The notes beneath the pieces are model-generated. The model saw nothing but the letters and a program-made list of their open reading frames with translations, did no database searches and was not told the DNA's origin. DNA of 13,020 nt. Origin: a virus. Its lineage: Duplodnaviria; Heunggongvirae; Uroviricota; Caudoviricetes. The position numbers and the translations under genes are program-made. Shown here piece after piece: positions 971 to 12,837 of this stretch. Where the stretch lies: IMG/VR virus record IMGVR_UViG_2693429623_000016; one strand, given 5' to 3'. Within the stretch, counting starts at the first letter, position 1, and each line of letters begins with the position of its first letter.

Positions 971-1261
971 TTAACTGTTTTTGCCTGGATACTGTCTTCG
1001 AGAATGCACAATATTTACTACTTCTATGCTTGATGCTGTTACTCGGTAAAGGATGATGTAGTTAGGATGAGTTACAATTTCACGAAGACCAAGAACTCGC
1101 TCGCTTGGAGGATACAGGTAAGGATGCTCTGTGAGCGGCAAAACGGATGTTTCAATTCGAATTTTCATTCTGCGTGCTGCCGCGGGATTTTCTTTAGCTA
1201 TGTAGGCTACGATCTGGCGCAAATCATCACGAGCAGATGGTAGCCATAAAACGGGTAACAT
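971..1261 (-). CDS. ParE/RelE-superfamily type II toxin
   Basis: 96-aa ORF with the size and sequence character of ParE/RelE toxins (MLPVLWLPSARDDLRQIVAYI…IILYRV…EVVNIVHSRR). Its start overlaps the stop of the upstream small ORF, the classic antitoxin-toxin arrangement. Assigned from recalled family features, not a search. Confidence 0.7.
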   Translation of the reverse strand: MLPVLWLPSARDDLRQIVAYIAKENPAAARRMKIRIETSVLPLTEHPYLYPPSERVLGLREIVTHPNYIILYRVTASSIEVVNIVHSRRQYPGKNS

Positions 1262-1455
1262 TATTCACCTCTGTGAGTTGCAGCAGCAATTTGGGCAATA
1301 ATTTGTTCCATTTCCGCCATTACCTCATCATGCGGAATCGCCGGGCGGGGATCCGCGAGGCTTGCTGCTACTTTGGCCCGCAGCCATTCGTTGTAACTAT
1401 TTTCTTGCTCAACTGTCTCAAATTCTGAAACCATTGGGGAAAGGACTGTACTCAT
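1261..1455 (-). CDS. type II antitoxin (ParD-like, cognate of downstream ParE-like toxin)
   Basis: 64-aa acidic ORF immediately upstream of and overlapping the toxin gene. A C-terminal segment (EWLRAKVAASLADPRPAIPHDEVMAEMEQII) resembles ParD-type antitoxins. Starts 17 bp after the repressor stop, so probably co-transcribed with the repressor. Confidence 0.6.
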   Translation of the reverse strand: MSTVLSPMVSEFETVEQENSYNEWLRAKVAASLADPRPAIPHDEVMAEMEQIIAQIAAATHRGE

Positions 1456-1474: not shown

Positions 1475-1975
1475 TTAGGCGCGACGGCCTTTTTGTGCAG
1501 CTAACCACCGCGCAACCGTACGATCCATTGATTCTTTTTTATCTTTCATCTCCTGAAGCATGTGTTCTTGATCTTCTTTCGGAAAAGCTCTGAACGTATG
1601 GATTAAATCTCGTTCCATCGGCTCTACGGCAAACGGTAGTTCATCCTCTGTTTGTTCTGTGTCTGCTGGTAATGCGACTATGTTATCTTGCTGTGGTTCT
1701 CGACAATACATCCTTGCAATTTGCAGCAAATCTACCATGTCTGGCCTGATTGACTCAGGGGGAACTTTCAGTAAGCCAGCAAACTTTAGAACAGCCTCAA
1801 GGTTTAGTGGGGTTTGACCATTTAGGTAGTGACTTACCGCCCCTTGTGTTGAAAACCCCATAATTTCCGCCGCACGTTCCTGAGTCAATCCCAACTGAGA
1901 TTTCTTTGCCATCCAGATTTCTTTCAGTCTTCTGGCGGCGTTGAGGTCGGTGTCTGACAATGATTTTCTTTTCAT
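1475..1975 (-). CDS. prophage repressor, HTH XRE family (RacR/cI-type, no S24 peptidase domain)
   Basis: HTH_XRE-like segment (LTQERAAEIMGFSTQGAVSHYLNGQTPLNLEAVLKFAGL). Transcribed divergently from the Cro-like gene across an operator-containing intergenic region. The ORF is open to a GTG at 2005; the ATG at 1973-1975 was chosen as start. No LexA-like Ser/Lys protease motifs are visible in the C-terminus. Confidence 0.75.
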   Translation of the reverse strand: MKRKSLSDTDLNAARRLKEIWMAKKSQLGLTQERAAEIMGFSTQGAVSHYLNGQTPLNLEAVLKFAGLLKVPPESIRPDMVDLLQIARMYCREPQQDNIVALPADTEQTEDELPFAVEPMERDLIHTFRAFPKEDQEHMLQEMKDKKESMDRTVARWLAAQKGRRA

Positions 1976-2010
1976 ACATCCAATTCTAATAAGATTGCTA
2001 ATCACTTTGA

Positions 2011-2843: not shown

Positions 2844-3908
2844 ATGGCTAACGCCTGGCTCAGATTATGGCATGACATGCCAAATGACCCTAAGTGGCGA
2901 ACAATTGCCAGGGTGTCAGGGCAGCCAATTGCAACAGTGATGGCAGTGTATATCCACCTCCTGGTGAGCGCGTCACGAAATGTCACGCGAGGTCACATTG
3001 ATGTCACGACAGAAGATTTGGCAAGTGCGCTCGACGTGACAGAAGAGGTAATTGATTCAATTTTGCAGACGATGCAGGGGCGGGTACTTGATGGTGATTT
3101 AATCACTGGATGGGAAAAACGCCAGGTGCTTAAAGAGGACAACGGCAATATTTCGCAAACCGCAAAATCTCCTGCAGAGCGCAAGAGGGCGCAGCGAGAG
3201 AGGGAAAGAAAGCGGGAACAAAATGGCGATTGTCACGGCGCGTCACGAAATGTCACGCACATGTCACGACGAGTCACGACAGATACAGATAAAGATACAG
3301 ATAAAGAAGATCAAAACACTATGGTCCATGGCGTAAAAAACGCCACGAACCAGGCAGGGGATGTTCAGACCGTCAATCCTGGTCAGCCAGCAGGCTCGAC
3401 ACCGGAAGCCGATTCAGCGTATGCGCTGAAAGCCGATTCGGGCGCTGTGCAGCAGGTGATGACCGCAAGGCCGGAGCAATCACTCCAACTGCAGCAGCCT
3501 GAAGCCGATTCCGCCATTCAGCGGGAAGCCGATCGGGTAGCCCCGGAAAACACCGGGCAGCCTGTGGGACGAGTGGATTATCCGGATGTGTTCGAACAGG
3601 TCTGGCGGGAATACCCGTTGCGTGCCGGGGCAAACCCGAAGAAATCCGCATTCAGTGCCTGGAAGGCCAGATTGCGCGAGGGGGTGCCACCAGAGACCAT
3701 GCTGGATGGTGTGAGGCGTTACGCGAGATACCTGGCGGCGACCGGGAAAGCGGGAACGGAATTTGTTCAGCGAGCGACGACGTTTTTTGGGCCGGACCGG
3801 AATTTTGAAAACCCCTGGTTGCTCCCGGTAAGCGGCACGAACAACCAGCGTTGTGTGAATCATATTTCTGAACCGGATACCGAAATTCCGCCGGGATTCA
3901 GGGGGTGA
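2844..3908 (+). CDS. phage replication initiator (lambda O analogue; YdaU position) containing internal origin-like iterons
   Basis: Sits immediately upstream of a DnaC-like gene, with RBS AGAGGTGAG before the ATG at 2844 (ORF open to a GTG at 2838). The middle is low-complexity and acidic, and the coding DNA carries iterons. The C-terminus ends …IPPGFRG just before the DnaC-like start; the same junction recurs at 5836-5856. Confidence 0.7.
   Translation: MANAWLRLWHDMPNDPKWRTIARVSGQPIATVMAVYIHLLVSASRNVTRGHIDVTTEDLASALDVTEEVIDSILQTMQGRVLDGDLITGWEKRQVLKEDNGNISQTAKSPAERKRAQRERERKREQNGDCHGASRNVTHMSRRVTTDTDKDTDKEDQNTMVHGVKNATNQAGDVQTVNPGQPAGSTPEADSAYALKADSGAVQQVMTARPEQSLQLQQPEADSAIQREADRVAPENTGQPVGRVDYPDVFEQVWREYPLRAGANPKKSAFSAWKARLREGVPPETMLDGVRRYARYLAATGKAGTEFVQRATTFFGPDRNFENPWLLPVSGTNNQRCVNHISEPDTEIPPGFRG
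2972..3008 (+). repeat. iteron cluster 1: four direct GTCAC(G/A) repeats at 10-11 bp spacing
   Basis: GTCACG at 2972, 2982 and 3003, GTCACA at 2992; an inverted copy (GTGAC) lies at 3045-3049. Confidence 0.6.
3232..3278 (+). repeat. iteron cluster 2: five direct GTCACG repeats at 10-11 bp spacing, followed by an AT-rich tandem motif
   Basis: GTCACG at 3232, 3242, 3252, 3263 and 3273. Immediately downstream (3284-3307) is gatacagataaa repeated twice within an A/T-rich stretch. Confidence 0.6.
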
Positions 3909-3914
3909 TGTGGC

Positions 3915-4716
3915 ATGAAAANNNNNNNNNNNNNNNNNNNNNNNNNNNNNNNNNNNNNNNNNNNNNNNNNNNNNNNNNNNNNNNNNNNNNNNNNNNNNNN
4001 NNNNNNNNNNNNNNNNNNNNNNNNNNNNNNNNNNNNNNNNNNNNNNNNNNNNNNNNNNNNNNNNNNNNNNNNNNNNNNNNNNNNNNNNNNNNNNNNNNNN
4101 NNNNNNNNNNNNNNNNNNNNNNNNNNNNNNNNNNNNNNNNNNNNNNNNNNNNNNNNNNNNNNNNNNNNNNNNNNNNNNNNNNNNNNNNNNNNNNNNNNNN
4201 NNNNNNNNNNNNNNNNNNNNNNNNNNNNNNNNNNNNNNNNNNNNNNNNNNNNNNNNNNNNNNNNNNNNNNNNNNNNNNNNNNNNNNNNNNNNNNNNNNNN
4301 NNNNNNNNNNNNNNNNNNNNNNNNNNNNNNNNNNNNNNNNNNNNNNNNNNNNNNNNNNNNNNNNNNNNNNNNNNNNNNNNNNNNNNNNNNNNNNNNNNNN
4401 NNNNNACAGCTACGACAACGGCAAATCCGGTGAAAAATTTTTACAGGAGCTTTGCGGGGTTGATTTGCTGGTCCTGGATGAAATAGGCATTCAGCGGGAG
4501 ACGAAAAACGAGCAGGTGGTATTGCACCAGATAATTGATCGCCGGACAGCATCACTGTGCAGTGTCGGGATGTTAACAAACCTGAATCATGCCGCAATGA
4601 GCACGCTTCTTGGTGAGAGGATTATGGACCGCATGACCATGAACGGTTGTCGGTGGGTGACGTTTAACTGGGATAGCTGGCGTTCAAATGTCAGCTTTCC
4701 GGGAGTTGTGAAGTAA
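3915..4716 (+). CDS. DnaC-like helicase loader, copy A (interior hidden by N-run 3922-4405)
   Basis: ATG at 3915 follows the O-like stop. After the gap the reading frame gives SYDNGKSGEKFLQELCGVDLLVLDEIGIQRETKNEQVVLHQIIDRRTASL…, homologous to the C-terminal half of the intact DnaC-like gene at 5863-6609. Stop TAA at 4714-4716. Confidence 0.7.
3922..4405. other. run of 484 N (assembly gap or masked sequence)
   Basis: Directly visible in the sequence. Confidence 1.
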
Positions 4717-5463: not shown

Positions 5464-5478
5464 TTGCCGGGGGCGCTT

Positions 5479-5616
5479 ATGGCAAAAGTATTTACACAGG
5501 AAGAGCGGGAAAAAATTAAGGGGCAGGTTGTTGAACTCGTACGCCAGAGTGGGCGCGAGACGTTACGACAACTGGAAGCTAAAACCGGGGCGACAAGATA
5601 TTTAATAAGCGTTCTC
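5479..5616 (+). CDS. partial CDS: N-terminus of a small wHTH-like protein, diverged paralogue of the 6624 and 7274 genes, cut off by an N-run
   Basis: MAKVFTQEEREKIKGQVVELVRQSGRETLRQLEAKTGATRY aligns with MAKPFTPEQREELKTRIVELVHQDGRVTIRQLSDETGISRA at 6624 and 7274. Ends at N-run 5617-5625. Confidence 0.4.
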
Positions 5617-5625
5617 NNNNNNNNN

Positions 5626-5856
5626 CAGGCATTGCGAAAACCGATTCGAACGGAGCAGGGCGCTAACGGGGCGATACGGGAACTGGAAAAATTCCGTCAG
5701 CAGGGTTTTACACCTGAGCAGGTGATTCGACACAGCATCGCCAATGAATACCAGGGTCTGTTCGCGCCGAAAGGTGTTCGGCCTGAGACGTTGCTCCGAC
5801 AGGTTAACACCGTCTCGTTGCCGGACAGTGCGATCCCGCCAGGCTTCAGGGGGTAA
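5626..5856 (+). CDS. partial CDS: C-terminus of a second O-type replication initiator, resuming after an N-run
   Basis: Ends …AIPPGFRG-stop at 5854-5856, then a DnaC-like ATG at 5863. This mirrors the 3'-end of the O-like gene and its junction with DnaC copy A at 3880-3917. The upstream part of this gene is absent. Confidence 0.45.
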   Translation, partial: QALRKPIRTEQGANGAIRELEKFRQQGFTPEQVIRHSIANEYQGLFAPKGVRPETLLRQVNTVSLPDSAIPPGFRG

Positions 5857-5862
5857 CAGACC

Positions 5863-6609
5863 ATGAAAAATATTGCGACAGGAGGCGTTCTGGAGCGTAT
5901 CCGCAGACTGACCCCACCACATGTAACCGCCCCATTCAGAACGGTTGCGGAGTGGCGCGAGTGGCAACTTGCTGAAGGCCAGAAACGTTGCGAGGAGATC
6001 AACCGCCTGAATCGTCAGTTGCGGGTGGAAAAAATCCTGAACCGCTCCGGCATCCAGCCGTTGCACCGGAAGTGTTCGTTTGCGAATTACCGGGCGCAGA
6101 ACGACGGTCAGCGACATGCACTGAGTCAGGCGAAATCCATAGCTGACGAACTGATGACAGGCTGTACGAATTTTGTGTTCAGCGGTAAGCCCGGCACCGG
6201 AAAAAATCATCTTGCAGACGCGATTGGCAACCGGCTGATGGCGAAGGGGCGTAGCGTGATTATCGTCACCGTGTCCGATGTCATGAGCGTGTTGCATGAG
6301 AGCTACGACAACGGCAAATCCGGTGAAAAATTTTTACAGGAGCTTTGTGGTGTTGACCTGCTGGTCCTGGATGAAATTGGCATGCAGCGGGATACGAAAA
6401 ACGAGCAGGTGGTACTGAACCAGATTGTTGATCGCCGGACGGCATCGTTACGCGGTGTGGGGATGCTGACAAATATTAACCATGCAGCGATGAATACACT
6501 TCTCGGCGAGCGGGTGATGGATCGCATGGTCATGAACGGCGGGCGCTGGGTGAATTTTAACTGGGAGAGCTGGCGTCCGAATGTTAGCCATTCGAGGGTT
6601 GTTAAGTAG
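5863..6609 (+). CDS. DnaC-like replicative helicase loader (AAA+; IstB/DnaC family), copy B, intact
   Basis: 248 aa with Walker A FSGKPGTGKNHLA and Walker B DLLVLDEIG. Collinear similarity to E. coli DnaC as I recall it (…NRSGIQPLHRKCSFANYR…LGERVMDRM…). Confidence 0.9.
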   Translation: MKNIATGGVLERIRRLTPPHVTAPFRTVAEWREWQLAEGQKRCEEINRLNRQLRVEKILNRSGIQPLHRKCSFANYRAQNDGQRHALSQAKSIADELMTGCTNFVFSGKPGTGKNHLADAIGNRLMAKGRSVIIVTVSDVMSVLHESYDNGKSGEKFLQELCGVDLLVLDEIGMQRDTKNEQVVLNQIVDRRTASLRGVGMLTNINHAAMNTLLGERVMDRMVMNGGRWVNFNWESWRPNVSHSRVVK

Positions 6610-6623
6610 TTTCAGGAGGATTT

Positions 6624-6808
6624 ATGGCGAAACCTTTTACTCCCGAACAGCGGGAAGAACTGAAGACGCGAATTGTGGAACTCGTGCATCAGGACGGTCG
6701 GGTCACGATTCGGCAGTTGTCAGATGAAACAGGTATCAGTCGTGCGTCTGTCGGTCGCTTATGCATGGAACTGGTCGCAAGTGGTGATGTATATAATTCT
6801 GGCTACGG
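6624..6808 (+). CDS. partial CDS: N-terminus of the small wHTH-like phage protein (copy B), cut off by N-run 6809-6819
   Basis: RBS AGGAGGA five nt before the ATG at 6624. Sequence is nearly identical to 7274-7458. Confidence 0.5.
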
Positions 6809-6819
6809 NNNNNNNNNNN

Positions 6820-7259
6820 TTGATGAAATTGGCATTCAGCGCGAGACGAAAAACGAGCAGGTGGTGCTGCACCAGATTGTTGATCGCCGGACAGCGTCGA
6901 TGCGCAGCGTGGGGATGCTGACAAACCTGAACTATGAGGTGATGAAAACANNNNNNNNNNNNNNNNNNNNNNNNNNNNNNNNNNNNNNNNNNNNNNNNNN
7001 NNNNNNNNNNNNNNNNNNNGATGAAATTGGCATTCAGCGCGAGACGAAAAACGAGCAGGTGGTACTGAACCAGATTGTTGATCGCCGGACGGCATCGTTA
7101 CGCGGTGTGGGGATGCTGACAAATATTAACCATGCAGCGATGAATACACTTCTCGGCGAGCGGGTGATGGATCGCATGGTCATGAACGGCGGGCGCTGGG
7201 TGAATTTTAACTGGGAGAGCTGGCGTCCGAATGTTAGCCATTCGAGGGTTGTTAAGTAG
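6820..7259 (+). pseudogene. DnaC-like C-terminal gene fragments (two partial copies flanking N-run 6951-7019)
   Basis: 6820-6950 encodes DEIGIQRETKNEQVVLHQIVDRRTASMRSVGMLTNLNYEVMKT, a variant of the DnaC core. 7020-7259 is near-identical to 6362-6609, the 3' end of DnaC-like copy B. Neither fragment has a 5' part. Confidence 0.5.
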
Positions 7260-7273
7260 TTTCAGGAGGATTT

Positions 7274-7643
7274 ATGGCGAAACCTTTTACTCCCGAACAG
7301 CGGGAAGAACTGAAGACGCGAATTGTGGAACTCGTGCATCAGGACGGTCGGGTCACGATTCGGCAGTTGTCAGATGAAACAGGTATCAGTCGTGCGTCTG
7401 TCGGTCGCTTATGCATAGAACTGGTCGCAAGTGGTGATGTATATAATTCTGGCTACGGGGTATTTCCCTCTGAACAGGCTCATAAAGACTGGCAAAACGC
7501 CCGCAAAAAGCTATCGAGGGTAAAGGTGAAGAAACCGGTTGTGGTTGATCCTGACCTTATCTGGTCATTACCAGACGGAGAAATACGCCGCTACGACAGG
7601 CGCCTGAATATAATCTGTCGCGAGTGCCGGAAGAGCGAAGCTA
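7274..7643 (+). pseudogene. small wHTH-like phage gene (copy B') truncated at its 3' end by the IS element
   Basis: Homology to the copy at 8915-9157 is lost after about position 7645, exactly where the IS terminal sequence (TGAGGT…) begins. The ORF then runs into the IS and ends at 7690. Confidence 0.6.
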
Positions 7644-7686
7644 TGAGGTGTACTGGCAATAGCGGACACTACCATTTGTTCTTTTT

Positions 7687-8592
7687 TTAAGCAGCCATCT
7701 GATGATATTTTTCCCTGAAGGCTGCCGGGGAGATATTCCCCAGACGAGAGTGACGACGCTGACGATTGTAGAAAATCTCAATGTATTCCCGTATTACTGA
7801 GATGGCTTCATCCCGGTTATTAAAACGATAGTGGCTCAGGCTCTCATTTTTCAGCGTTCCCCAGAAGCTTTCCATCGGAGCGTTGTCGTAACAGTTACCT
7901 TTACGCGACATTGATGTTTTCAGACCAGACTGCTCCTGTATGACCCGGTAATCGTATGCGCAGTACTGTGAACCTCGATCAGAGTGGTGGATTAGCCCGG
8001 CAGGTGGGCGCTGGCTCCTGAGCGCCATAAACAGGGCTTTACCTGTCAGCTCTTTTGTCATGCGCTCTCCCATGGCGTAGCCGACAATTTCGCACGTATA
8101 AACATCTTTGATGCCAGCGAGGTACAACCATCCCTCCTGTGTGGCAACATACGTCAGGTCCGCCACCCAGACCTGATTTGGTGCTGTAGGAGCGAACGTC
8201 TGGTTCAGCAGATTTGGCGCAACTGGCAGATTGTGGTTCGAGTTCGTAGTCGCTCTGAACTTGCGTTTCTGCTTACAGCGTAGCCTTAGCTCCTTACGAA
8301 GACGTGCCAGTCGGTCACGACCAACGATGATGCCATTCTCTGCCAGCTCCGTCTGGAGCCGCCGGGTTCCATATGTTTCGCGAGTGCGGATATGTGCCAC
8401 CTTAATCTCCAGTTTTAGCCGCTCATCACTTTGTTTTCTGTCTGAGGGTTCATGCTGTACCCAGTTGTAATAACCGCTCCTGGATACACCAAATACCTGA
8501 CACATCGCTTCAATGGGAAATTGTTGTCGCCATTGTTCGATTAACGCGTATTTTTCAGCGACTCCTGTGCAAAATACGCTGTTGCTTTTTTT
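7687..8592 (-). CDS. IS3-family transposase OrfB (DDE/rve integrase core), expressed as an OrfAB fusion by -1 frameshift
   Basis: DDE integrase-like sequence (…WVADLTYV…HHSDRGSQY…NAPMESFW…). The orfB frame is -1 relative to orfA. Slippery heptamer A_AAA_AAA at 8586-8592 (minus strand) lies within the orfA codons tta-aaa-aaa-gca. Confidence 0.85.
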   Translation of the reverse strand, partial: KKSNSVFCTGVAEKYALIEQWRQQFPIEAMCQVFGVSRSGYYNWVQHEPSDRKQSDERLKLEIKVAHIRTRETYGTRRLQTELAENGIIVGRDRLARLRKELRLRCKQKRKFRATTNSNHNLPVAPNLLNQTFAPTAPNQVWVADLTYVATQEGWLYLAGIKDVYTCEIVGYAMGERMTKELTGKALFMALRSQRPPAGLIHHSDRGSQYCAYDYRVIQEQSGLKTSMSRKGNCYDNAPMESFWGTLKNESLSHYRFNNRDEAISVIREYIEIFYNRQRRHSRLGNISPAAFREKYHQMAA

Positions 8593-8843: not shown

Positions 8844-8914
8844 TATTAGCTCCTTCTGATGCCATTCTATTTCAGGAAGGAGTGTCCGTTAAACTCAGGC
8901 TACCTCANNNNNNN

Positions 8915-9157
8915 TACGGGTTATTCCCGTCTGAACAGGCTCGTAAGGACTGGCAAAACGCCCGCAAAAAACTCTCGAGGGCAAAGCTGAAGAAACCATC
9001 TGTGGTTGATCCGGACCTTATCTGGTCATTACCAGACGGAGAAATACGCCGCTACGACAGGCGCCTGAATATAATCTGTCGCGAGTGCCGGAAGAGTGAA
9101 GTTATGCAGCGTGTACCGGCTTTCTATCAGGGTGATTTTCAGGAGGCGGTACTGTGA
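8915..9157 (+). CDS. partial CDS: C-terminal part of a diverged paralogue of the small wHTH-like phage protein
   Basis: …GLFPSEQARKDWQNARKKLSRAKLKKPSVVDPDLIWSLPDGEIRRYDRRLNIICRECRKSEVMQRVPAFYQGDFQEAVL is about 90% identical to 7459-7643. The 5' part is absent; the sequence resumes directly after N-run 8908-8914. Confidence 0.5.
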   Translation, partial: YGLFPSEQARKDWQNARKKLSRAKLKKPSVVDPDLIWSLPDGEIRRYDRRLNIICRECRKSEVMQRVPAFYQGDFQEAVL

Positions 9158-9785: not shown

Positions 9786-11758
9786 ATGGCCCGCATGTTT
9801 GATACATTAGGATTTTACATTATGAATGTGCAACATTTTGATTTTTTTACAGATAATGAGTTTTCTAATCTGGAAAGATATCAAACTTGTAAAGCCATGG
9901 CCAAAGGTTATGCGGGCAATTACAAAACCGGGCAGTCAAGGTTGATGCATGCCCGCTCATACTGCTTCAGCATCGTAGCTGCATATTGGGATACCCTTGC
10001 AAAAAAGCAAAAAAGCAGCATTAAAATGAGGGCAGTACCGCACACTGTTTACATAGAAGACATTCCATGTGATGCACGCGAGCTCGCTGAACGAACAGGT
10101 GAGCTTATTGCTCAATTTCCGGCGGAGGACGCTGGATATCTGATTGGGTCAATTTATACGGTAATGCTGCCATCCGCTTACCGTTCGGAATTGGGGGCTT
10201 ACTATACCCCCCCACCTTTGGTAGCGCGTCTCTTGGACCTGGCTGAAAAGTCTGGTGTTGATTTTTCTCATGCATCGGTTATTGATCCTGCGTGTGGTGG
10301 CGGTGCATTTTTGGCACCAGTAGCCATTCGAATGTTAAAAAAAGACAAGGGGTCTTCCCCTGAATGGATGTTGAGGAGAATCAGTCGTCGTTTAAAGGGG
10401 ATAGAAATCGATCCATTTGCGGCTTGGATGAGTTTGGTATTGCTCGAATCTGTACTAATGCCACTATGTGTAAAGGTAAAACGTAGATTGCCTGAAGATA
10501 CAATTATTGTTGCTGATGCGCTTCAGCAAGATAAATTTTCTGGTTATGATCTTGTGGTAGGGAATCCGCCTTACGGACGTGTCACTCTCGATATTAAAAC
10601 GAGAGAAAAATATTCTCGTTCGTTATTTGGTCATGCAAATCTATATGGATTGTTCACCGACTTAGCTGTTCGCATGGTTAAANNNNNNNNNNNNNNNNNN
10701 NNNNNNNNNNNNNNNNNNNNNNNNNNNNNNNNNNNNNNNNNNNNNNNNNNNNNNNNNNNNNNNNNNNNNNNNNNNNNNNNNNNNNNNNNNNNNNNNNNNN
10801 NNNNNNNNNNNNNNNNNNNNNNNNNNNNNNNNNNNNNNNNNNNNNNNNNNNNNNNNNNNNNNNNNNNNNNNNNNNNNNNNNNNNNNNNNNNNNNNNNNNN
10901 NNNNNNNNNNNNNNNNNNNNNNNNNNNNNNNNNNNNNNNNNNNNNNNNNNNNNNNNNNNNNNNNNNNNNNNNNNNNNNNNNNNNNNNNNNNNNNNNNNNN
11001 NNNNNNNNNNNNNNNNNNNNNNNNNNNNNNNNNNNNNNNNNNNNNNNNNNNNNNNNNNNNNNNNNNNNNNNNNNNNNNNNNNNNNNNNNNNNNNNNNNNN
11101 NNNNNNNNNNNNNNNNNNNNNNNNNNNNNNNNNNNNNNCCTGTTTTCTTAATGTATTAAAACAGATGTCTACGCGTTTAGCTGATCTGGGATACTCAGTC
11201 TCTACAGGTCAGTTAGTCTGGAATCGATTTAAGTCGCAGTTGCGTACGACGAAAGGAAAAAATAGCTACCCATTAGTCTGGGCGGAATCAATAACTTCAG
11301 CTGGTTTTCGTTTTAGTGCAGACAGAAAAAATCATGTTCCCTATATCGATATAACCCCACAACAGGGTTTCCTTGTGACAAAATCTGAATGTGTGCTTGT
11401 TCAGCGGACAACATCGAAGGAACAGGACAGAAGGATTTTAGCGGCAATTTTACCTCAGGGATTTATAGATGAAACTGGTGGCGTAGTAGTTGAAAACCAT
11501 ATTAATATTGTATATTCAAACGGATTGTTCTCTGCGGTTCGCCCTGATGTTATTGATATGCTACTTAATTCGCATGTTGTCGATCGGGCGTTCAGGTGTA
11601 TAAGCGGAAGTGTTGCTGTTTCGGCCTATGAATTGAATTCAATCCCGTTGCCTTCTCTGGAGCAGGTGATGGAGATTCAATCGTTAATTGATGCTGGCGT
11701 CCACAGACGGATTATTGAGAGAACTATCGCTGGTTTCTATGGAGTGATGATTGCATGA
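9786..11758 (+). CDS. N6-adenine DNA methyltransferase, gamma class (Eco57I/TaqI-like catalytic domain plus C-terminal target-recognition domain); middle hidden by N-run 10683-11138
   Basis: Motif X-like GAYYTPPPLVARLL, motif I DPACGGGAFL and motif IV VVGNPPYG occur in that order. After the N-run the frame is open back to the gap and encodes a TRD-like region (LADLGYSVSTGQLVWNR … AYELNSIPLP). The two halves are in different frames relative to the N count, so gene continuity is inferred rather than seen. Confidence 0.75.
10683..11138. other. run of 456 N inside the methyltransferase gene (assembly gap or masked)
   Basis: Directly visible in the sequence. Confidence 1.
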
Positions 11759-12837
11759 ATCTGCCTGTTGTTCCCCCATTGAATGTTATCCGGGAAAGAT
11801 TACAATTAATTTTCCCTGAAGGGACTGAGAATCGTGGATATTTAATTCGGGAAATAGCTGCAAAAACAATTTTTGTCATGTTTTATGCTGGTGCGGTTGA
11901 GGGGCTGGGGCGATGGATAAGGCCCAGCCAGGTTGTAAGTATGGGAGATTCGCAGGCTGCTCTTACTGATGATGCGTCCAGAGAAAGCTGGGTAAAGATG
12001 ACTTTCTCTAAACAAAAGATAAGGCCTGCTGATGCATGGTATGCGGAAAATACGCGTGAGCCAATACGTGATGAAACTATAAAAAATGGCCTAATACCTT
12101 GCAATGCAATTGTTGAGCGTAAAGGTATACCCACCACATCCTCTCGTCCTCGTTACAGTTTGAATCGCTCTTTTGCAGCACTCTTTGATGCCGGGCTTGA
12201 AGGAGATTCGCTGCTGAGTGCAATAAGTTCCTGGCAAGAAAATCATTTGAACAAAGCCGCTCTTGCTAGGTTGCGTTTATTGAAATCAGGGGCAGTGATT
12301 GCTGCTGATGCCGTAGTCGTCACTTTCCCAAATGGAGAGAAGAGAACTTTAGCTCCGGGCCCGTCAAGTACAATAGCTAAGGCCGTCATCGAAGTTTTTG
12401 CTCCTAATTTTCTTAAGAATCCAACTGTGCTCTGGTTGTCTGAATCCGGGAATAAAGTTGTTGCTCAGGATGATGTATTGGCAAAAGCATTGGGGCTGAA
12501 TATTGATGCCTCAAAAGCACTTCCAGATATTATTTTGATTGATTTGGGAGAGGACCGAACGGGTTCGGACATGCTTGTAGTTTTCACTGAAGTAGTTGCG
12601 ACAGATGGGCCTATAAACAGGGAACGAAAAGTTACTCTCACTCATTTGGCTATTGACGCTGGGTTCAGCGAGAAAAATCTTGCATTCCTTACGGCATTTA
12701 TGGACAGAAGTGCTCTGCCTTTTAAAAAGGCAATACCAGAATTGGCGTGGGGATCTTATGCATGGTTTGCTTCTGAACCGGAGCACTTAATTGATCTTCG
12801 GGATGGTTATCCGGTAAAGATCAGCCAGAGAAAATGA
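11755..12837 (+). CDS. putative Type II restriction endonuclease (BsuBI/PstI-like?), partner of the methyltransferase
   Basis: 360-aa ORF whose ATG overlaps the methyltransferase stop (ATGA at 11755-11758). N-terminal segment IFPEG…AAKTIFVMFYAGAV…AENTREPIRDE resembles what I recall of BsuBI/PstI-family nucleases, which typically pair with Eco57I-type methyltransferases. No canonical PD-(D/E)xK motif was confidently identified. Confidence 0.5.
   Translation: MNLPVVPPLNVIRERLQLIFPEGTENRGYLIREIAAKTIFVMFYAGAVEGLGRWIRPSQVVSMGDSQAALTDDASRESWVKMTFSKQKIRPADAWYAENTREPIRDETIKNGLIPCNAIVERKGIPTTSSRPRYSLNRSFAALFDAGLEGDSLLSAISSWQENHLNKAALARLRLLKSGAVIAADAVVVTFPNGEKRTLAPGPSSTIAKAVIEVFAPNFLKNPTVLWLSESGNKVVAQDDVLAKALGLNIDASKALPDIILIDLGEDRTGSDMLVVFTEVVATDGPINRERKVTLTHLAIDAGFSEKNLAFLTAFMDRSALPFKKAIPELAWGSYAWFASEPEHLIDLRDGYPVKISQRK

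Follow-up and report, generated by a model that had tools for sequence, protein, structure and literature searches.

A candidate replication origin written as phased repeats into the initiator gene of a lambdoid prophage

The 13,020-nucleotide IMG/VR virus record IMGVR_UViG_2693429623_000016 (Duplodnaviria; Heunggongvirae; Uroviricota; Caudoviricetes), referred to here at its full length as the window, belongs to a lambdoid E. coli prophage. Its replication initiator gene carries two arrays of a short, helically phased repeat, which an earlier reading of the letters (the original prediction) had proposed as a replication origin bound by the gene's own product. Judged by sequence and by analogy with characterized systems, positions 2972–3352 are very probably a vegetative, theta-type prophage origin that lies within the coding sequence of its own initiator. 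The genes and features at this locus are:

1475–2005, minus strand: cI-like repressor, upstream of the initiator
2060–2350: cro/YdaS-like gene, upstream of the initiator
2347–2772: CII/YdaT-like gene, directly upstream of the initiator
2844–3908, plus strand: gene for the 354-aa replication initiator; PGAP annotation 'phage replisome organizer'
2972–3008, plus strand: iteron cluster 1, with (T)GTCAC(G/A) four times, at 2972, 2982, 2992 (GTCACA) and 3003
3035–3040, minus strand: a single inverted iteron copy, GTCACG as read on that strand
3232–3278, plus strand: iteron cluster 2, with (T)GTCACG five times, at 3232, 3242, 3252, 3263 and 3273
3279–3321, plus strand: AT-rich tract (43 bp), purine-rich on the coding strand, GC content ∼0.30, candidate DNA unwinding element (DUE)
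3322–3352: imperfect 13-bp inverted repeat, tggtccatggcgt-aaaaa-acgccacgaacca, directly 3′ of the AT-rich tract
3915–4716, plus strand: DnaC-like helicase loader gene, immediately downstream of the initiator, with 3922–4405 masked by N

The nine direct copies of GTCAC(G/A), their division into two clusters and their 10–11 bp spacing were all located as claimed, with successive spacings of 10, 10 and 11 bp in cluster 1 and of 10, 10, 11 and 10 bp in cluster 2. The inverted copy had been placed at 3045, ten positions away from where it lies. The nine direct copies and the inverted one make up 10 of the 14 GTCAC(G/A) matches in the 13-kb window. From the density in shuffled sequence, 0.124 direct hexamers would be expected in the 307 bp that hold nine (Poisson P(≥9) = 1.8e-14), and first-order Markov simulations (n = 200) gave at most two copies of one hexamer at +10/+11, compared with the five observed. 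The hexamers occupy all three reading frames (2, 0, 1, 0 in cluster 1 and 1, 2, 0, 2, 0 in cluster 2) and are therefore a DNA repeat, not a peptide repeat. The repeated peptide that had been noted is also there: a 19-nt repeat, GCGTCACGAAATGTCACGC, occurs in the same frame at 2970–2988 and 3240–3258 and encodes ASRNVT at residues 43–48 and 133–138.

Selection on the repeats as DNA can be read from homologues at a suitable distance. The 80 IMG/VR relatives with 94–100% amino acid identity are too close to separate DNA constraint from protein constraint. Across 59 distinct close alleles, every hexamer and its position are invariant, and the variation lies in the copy number of an ACAGAT unit after position 3278. 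A scan of one genome per species yielded 58 loci from Gamma-, Beta- and Alphaproteobacteria, Acidobacteria and others. The GTCACG core was found in 24 of the scanned species loci, and 23 of these were aligned by codon with the window (24 species in all, median amino acid identity 72%). In this alignment, the commonest third base reached a mean frequency of 0.96 at the 12 hexamer codons, as against 0.54 at 65 other conserved codons (Mann–Whitney p = 6e-8). Within cluster 1, the favoured codons were GCG at A43 (22/24), TCA at S44 (22/24), GTC at V47 (23/23), ACG at T48 (23/23), GGT at G50 (24/24), CAC at H51 (23/23), GTC at V54 (23/23) and ACG at T55 (22/23). Cluster 2 behaved in the same way, with CAC at H131 (22/22), TCA at S141 (24/24) and GTC at V144 (24/24). 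The codon for R49, a spacer between two hexamers, was scrambled (CGA in 8, CGT in 7 and CGC in 8). Many GTCAC-type loci have the inverted copy at the equivalent place in the gene, and its Val65 codon is GTG in all 19 GTCAC-type homologues that keep the valine; in most loci with a CGAAC or AACGC core, the gene lacks an inverted copy of that core. The comparison of DNA with protein conservation that the original prediction had suggested as a check thus came out in its favour, in that hexamers, phasing and AT-rich tract are all kept at synonymous sites. The hexamers are under purifying selection at the DNA level.

The AT-rich tract with a tandem repeat that was said to follow cluster 2 is equally real. 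The GC minimum of the initiator gene (0.30) falls at 3280–3319, where the plus strand is A-rich, and the tract holds the 12-mer AGATACAGATAA twice in tandem at 3281–3304 and a GATC site at 3309–3312. The same element was present after the second array in 37 of 37 measured homologous loci, even as overall gene GC content ranged from 38 to 69%: the 45 bp 3′ of that array averaged 0.32 GC, compared with 0.55 for the gene, and were 73% purine. Its first codons stay A/T in the 24-species alignment (GAT 21/21, AAA 17/18 and GAT 18/21). Copy number of the ACAGAT/AGATACAGATAA unit, which encodes the peptide DTDKDTDK, differs among alleles that are 94–100% identical and produces initiator genes of 1065, 1071, 1083, 1095 and 1107 bp, the window holding the shortest form. 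On the other side of cluster 2, just 5′ of it, a nearly pure polypurine run (3180–3225, plus strand, AT skew 1.0) encodes a basic helix, ERKRAQRERERKRE.

The inverted repeat at 3322–3352 may be a third component of the origin, although the evidence is suggestive. Its DNA is kept in five relatives (loci L142 and L144–L147) despite their different iterons, and the peptide that it encodes, NT(M/L)VHG(E/V)KNA, is unusually conserved for a disordered linker. Among 39 loci, hairpin-capable repeats 3′ of the second array were modestly enriched (score 6.1 versus 5.3, p = 2e-4). Read on the minus strand, the repeat forms a 13-pair hairpin followed by a T-rich run, and in this it resembles a terminator for antisense transcription. 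A promoter and terminator scan was otherwise at chance level, and an Rfam scan of the whole window returned no family.

The placement of the arrays can be compared with a model of the protein that they encode. An AlphaFold model built on a 17-sequence alignment (mean pLDDT 53.6) comprises a confident N-terminal domain (residues 1–89, five helices and a hairpin, forming a winged helix), a basic helix (110–129), a disordered stretch (128–243) and a helical C-terminal domain (244–322). Cluster 1 encodes residues 43–55, that is, the end of the helix at 29–45 and a low-confidence loop that runs to residue 55. Cluster 2 (residues 130–145) and the AT-rich tract together encode residues 130–160, at the start of the disordered linker. 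Insertions and deletions among homologues fall exactly at the cluster 1 segment and at the cluster 2/AT-tract segment. On this model, the arrays are placed in regions of low protein constraint, and they would sit in a surface loop and a disordered linker because sites written into coding DNA go where the protein tolerates almost any sequence. The modelled N-terminal domain looks like the winged helix at the N-terminus of DnaD, a fold shared by DnaD, B. subtilis DnaB and RepA_N proteins.

The layout extends far beyond close relatives, and the sequence of the repeat changes with the domain that would read it. About 45 of 54 full-length homologous genes carry two arrays of a 5–6-mer phased at 10–11 bp at the same gene positions (∼nt 120–165 and nt 345–430), in loci that span Gamma-, Beta- and Alphaproteobacteria and Acidobacteria; four further metagenome homologues show the same pattern. 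The core varies between groups of loci and is identical in both arrays of any one gene. Besides GTCACG, there is a GTAACG(C) core, found for example in Pantoea, Enterobacter and Marinobacter loci, and a CGAACGC core in loci from betaproteobacteria, Acidobacteria and unclassified metagenome bins. Numbers of repeats vary as well, GTCAC-type alleles having from 4 + 5 to 6 + 5 hexamers, with two extra copies in cluster 1 of some. The most telling locus is a natural chimera, L142. Its initiator (protein P0033) has an unrelated N-terminal 155 residues, joined to a C-terminal 199 residues that are 94% identical to those of the window protein, and the CII/YdaT-like protein upstream is 85% identical to the window's. 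GTCAC does not occur anywhere in the L142 initiator gene. In its place the gene carries AAGGGGCTT at 185, 196 and (207) and again at 441, 452 and 463, in an 11-bp phase, with a purine-rich tract again after the repeats. Since this locus swaps the initiator N-domain and the repeats change too, the repeats travel with the N-domain and with no other neighbouring element. The initiator's DNA-binding domain and the sequence of the repeats co-vary.

The genes around the initiator are those of a lambdoid replication region. The initiator itself matches PHROG 3729, 'replication initiation protein' (E 3e-250), and the order cI-cro-CII/YdaT-initiator-DnaC-like is found in the window and in four metagenomic relatives (L144–L147). 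Within the partly masked loader gene, the open reading frame (ORF) at 4465–4716 matches PHROG 50 (DnaC-like helicase loader) in a frame that differs from that of the start at 3915; in a homologous locus, PGAP names the loader's homologue 'ATP-binding protein'. The best E. coli match is a degraded prophage that retains the order from YdaT onward. Of 5426 complete E. coli genomes, 2543 contain DNA that is at least 80% identical, as do seven sequenced phages, so this allele or a close relative is widespread, and the initiator N-domain is also present in O157 prophages. The complete phage Tritos (46 kb) has one such array: 10 copies fall within 320 bp, compared with at most two in any other part of the genome; the initiator is its only annotated replication gene, and no other locus combining repeats with an AT-rich tract was seen. 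The phage records examined carry no rep_origin feature. In vB_EcoS-640R1 (L143) and Tritos (L148), a small gene (annotated as LygF in vB_EcoS-640R1 and as a hypothetical protein in Tritos), not a DnaC-like one, follows the initiator. A loader encoded by the phage thus seems not to be required, and host DnaC may take its place.

Phased repeats, placement inside the gene, an adjacent AT-rich element and co-variation with the N-domain are all found at this locus. By analogy with proven origins, the initiator would bind the hexamers, open the DNA and recruit a helicase. The N-terminal winged-helix domain would contact (T)GTCACG, and the 10–11 bp spacing would set the bound initiators on one face of the helix within each array. 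Once oligomerized on the five-copy array, perhaps with the aid of the four-copy array ∼230 bp upstream, the initiators could strain the adjacent 43-bp AT/purine-rich tract enough to open it. DnaB would be brought in through the initiator's C-terminal part, together with either the phage DnaC-like loader or host DnaC. Conservation, co-variation, gene context and proven analogues thus all favour the original prediction of an origin bound by the initiator. The label 'O-like' fares less well: it holds by position and presumed role, because the protein has no Pfam match at E ≤ 0.01 and hence none to lambda O.

Three characterized systems, the closest working analogues, share this architecture, each with its own departures. 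One is oriL of Bacillus phage SPP1, in which boxes bound by G38P and a DUE lie inside gene 38 and 356 bp are enough in vitro. The sequence of gene 38 has GACA four times at an 11-bp phase in mid-gene, followed directly by an A-rich AT tract. Like the window, SPP1 thus combines an origin inside the initiator gene, short direct repeats and an adjacent AT-rich DUE, with a helicase loader gene downstream and the same PGAP name, 'phage replisome organizer'. The window has two arrays ∼230 bp apart, the first within N-domain coding sequence, whereas a repeat scan and a GACA search found a single phased array in gene 38. The loaders also differ, being DnaC-like and AAA+ in the window and G39P together with a phage-encoded helicase, G40P, in SPP1, as do the hosts. 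G38P binds a second site in SPP1, oriR, whereas the Tritos array has no counterpart elsewhere in that phage. The sole match of G38P itself is PF09524, at its C-terminus.

The RepA_N replicon of plasmid pSK41 is another: its Rep protein binds four boxes, located centrally in rep, through a DnaD-like N-terminal domain. The linker encoded by this ori is dispensable, and a natural chimera swaps the N-terminal domain and the ori as one ∼500-bp unit. The plasmid is Gram-positive and the window element is a proteobacterial phage, the C-terminal domains differ, and a RepA_N sequence match to the window initiator was not found. Copy number in pSK41 is controlled by an antisense RNA, for which no counterpart was seen in the window.

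Lambda and the Stx phages carry four to six iterons and an AT tract in the middle of O. As in the window, lambda ori lies between the cro and cII genes and the loader gene, with iterons and AT tract in mid-initiator, and alleles differ in how many iterons they have (4 to 6 in lambda/Stx, 4 + 5 to 6 + 5 in the window type). In lambdoid phages, iteron specificity follows the N-terminal domain of O, and in lambda a palindrome follows the AT tract. The lambda iterons are ∼19 bp long and internally symmetric and form one array, whereas the window has 6–7-bp cores every 10–11 bp in two arrays; the lambda loader is P and that of the window is DnaC-like. The architecture as such is therefore already known from lambda ori, SPP1 oriL and pSK41 ori. 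What appears to be new is this probable proteobacterial prophage origin, widespread and with 6–7-bp cores in two arrays.

Several points weigh against reading 2972–3352 as an origin, or against parts of that reading. In ∼9 of the 54 homologues, a simple scan found no obvious phased array. Cooperative looping between the two arrays was considered and rejected, as the helical phase between them is not conserved across 37 loci (R = 0.25, p ∼0.1). The model helix at residues 67–77, the usual recognition helix of a winged helix, is acidic. The sequence of the N-domain gave no significant hit among initiators whose origins are mapped, and homology to SPP1 G38P, tried directly, was rejected at an hhalign probability of 0.1–0.2%. 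Literature searches of the accessible library on GTCACG/TGTCACG iterons, DnaT-like phage initiators and prophage replisome-organizer origins did not turn up a description of this origin. Finally, the support comes from sequence, with initiator binding, unwinding and autonomous replication as predictions.

At E ≤ 0.01, Pfam gave no family for the 354-residue initiator, lambda O included, and at E ≤ 0.5 it gave noise and PF09681 (Phage_rep_org_N). The latter scores E 0.0081 and 16.6 bits over profile positions 1–119 of 121, below its cutoff of 23.3, and matches 8 of 28 members of the initiator family at E ≤ 0.1 (best 6.9e-4). TIGR01714 is likewise below its cutoff of 49.8, at E 0.015 and 15.4 bits.

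Of the competing explanations, the one that survives best accepts that the hexamers bind the initiator and gives them a mainly regulatory role, such as autorepression, a transcription roadblock, handcuffing or a fork barrier, with the start site elsewhere. Plasmid iterons commonly do both origin and regulatory jobs, which counts for this explanation, as does the division of the repeats into two arrays, one of which has no AT-rich tract within 230 bp. For SPP1, fork stalling by G38P bound to oriR, the late origin, has been suggested. We nevertheless consider a mainly regulatory role improbable: an AT/purine-rich tract always comes directly after cluster 2 in the 37 loci, in the complete phage Tritos the array has no second copy and no other repeat-plus-AT locus was seen, and the proven analogues use the same arrangement as an origin.

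Binding of the hexamers by some other protein, be it the CII/YdaT-like neighbour, the downstream DUF1627 protein or a host factor, is less probable again, at the level of a long shot. Such a reading could draw on the acidic recognition helix of the N-domain model, of the winged helix-turn-helix type, and on the fact that binding of the hexamers by the initiator is itself a prediction. It has to contend with the L142 chimera, which keeps the CII/YdaT-like protein (85%) and the C-terminal half of the initiator (94%) and changes its repeats with the N-domain. The differences in core among loci from hosts of very different phyla argue against any single host factor.

Still fainter is the prospect that the region is slippage- or recombination-prone DNA, a mosaic boundary or a contingency locus that varies the linker and has no replication role. 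Variable ACAGAT/DTDK copy number among close relatives (genes of 1065–1107 bp), the two extra hexamers in cluster 1 of some alleles and the L142 junction right after the AT tract would all suit it, yet the hexamers and their positions are invariant in the 59 close alleles, and synonymous sites are fixed across species. That the repeats are a by-product of a needed peptide motif (SRNVT or VT), as the two occurrences of ASRNVT might suggest, has a negligible chance of being right, being refuted by hexamers in three frames and fixed synonymous sites, by encoded segments that are a low-confidence loop and a disordered linker, and by an unrelated N-domain that has DNA repeats of its own in the same layout.

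If 2972–3352 is an origin, the C-terminus of the initiator bears on how the helicase would be obtained. The C-terminal tail (residues 331–354, window 3834–3905) reads VNHISEPDTEIPPGFRG, and its final ∼22 residues, …SEPDTEIPPGFRG, match the C-terminal end of E. coli DnaT, with E 0.0016 for the NCBIfam profile and E 0.019 for 6aep by phmmer. This tail is kept in P0033, with its different N-domain, and in distant homologues. The gene is also like E. coli dnaT in standing directly upstream of a DnaC-type gene, as in dnaT-dnaC. DnaT is recruited to forks by PriA and PriB, not by DNA sequence. The helical C-domain of the window protein (residues 244–322) is not detectably DnaT-like. An alignment-profile match to 6aep (E 2e-8) had pointed that way and was rejected when it vanished with window-type sequences only; the match therefore came from alleles that carry PF17948. 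No PF17948 match was found for the window protein's own C-domain, so that the tail alone is shared. Sister alleles with the same N-domain and iterons carry the full DnaT-like single-stranded DNA-binding domain PF17948, which indicates that the C-terminal module is interchangeable.

These observations allow a bolder proposal, tentative and on balance unlikely, of a widespread, undescribed two-part class of proteobacterial prophage origin that acquires DnaB-DnaC by mimicking what DnaT does in the restart primosome. If it were true, the first array would form part of the gene segment that encodes its own reader, the DNA-binding domain, and the second, ∼230 bp away, would abut the polypurine AT tract and hairpin. 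A shift of specificity from GTCACG to GTAACGC to CGAACGC would then need simultaneous change in both arrays and in the encoded peptide. The swappable C-modules, either the DnaT-like domain that forms filaments on single-stranded DNA or, as in the window, the DnaT tail alone, would imitate the DnaT step.

An origin narrowed to ∼380 bp would be a defined target for studying or blocking prophage replication. It is also a candidate initiator-dependent vector replicon, whose natural variants (GTCACG, GTAACGC, CGAACGC and AAGGGGCTT) might be mutually compatible. The locus is a clean example of overlapping selection on coding DNA. For this initiator family it suggests an annotation rule, by which two arrays of 6–7-bp cores phased at 10–11 bp, at ∼nt 130 and nt 350–430, followed by a purine-rich AT tract, would mark the origin. 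Further attention is merited by the dual-coding signal, the naturally occurring specificity variants and the C-terminal modules of DnaT type.

The rest of the window holds a second, apparently shortened replication module at 5464–7690, bringing the total to two loader genes and one complete initiator, as well as an insertion sequence and possible cargo:

971–1261, minus strand: ParE-family toxin gene, adjoining the cI-like repressor
1261–1455, minus strand: small ORF (PHROG 3936), possibly the antitoxin of the ParE-family gene
5464–5856: ORF joining a Ren-like N-terminal part to the C-terminal end of an O-like/'primosomal' initiator (PHROGs 142, 6451 and 678)
5863–6609: second, intact DnaC-like gene (NCBIfam PRK12377, E 8e-152)
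6624–7259 and 7274–7690: two DUF977 genes
7687–8505, minus strand: transposase of the IS3 family, with rve integrase core and HTH_21, immediately beyond the DUF977 genes
8882–9157: Ren-like C-terminal fragment, on the far side of the IS3 transposase
9786–11159, 11165–11758 and 11755–12837: three consecutive ORFs that weakly match PHROGs for DNA methyltransferases and a restriction endonuclease

The positions of the two Ren-like pieces suggest that the insertion sequence split a Ren-like gene. The three ORFs at 9786–12837 may be restriction-modification or other defence cargo. Runs of N occur in the window at 3922–4405, 5617–5625, 6809–6819, 6951–7019, 8908–8914 and 10683–11138.

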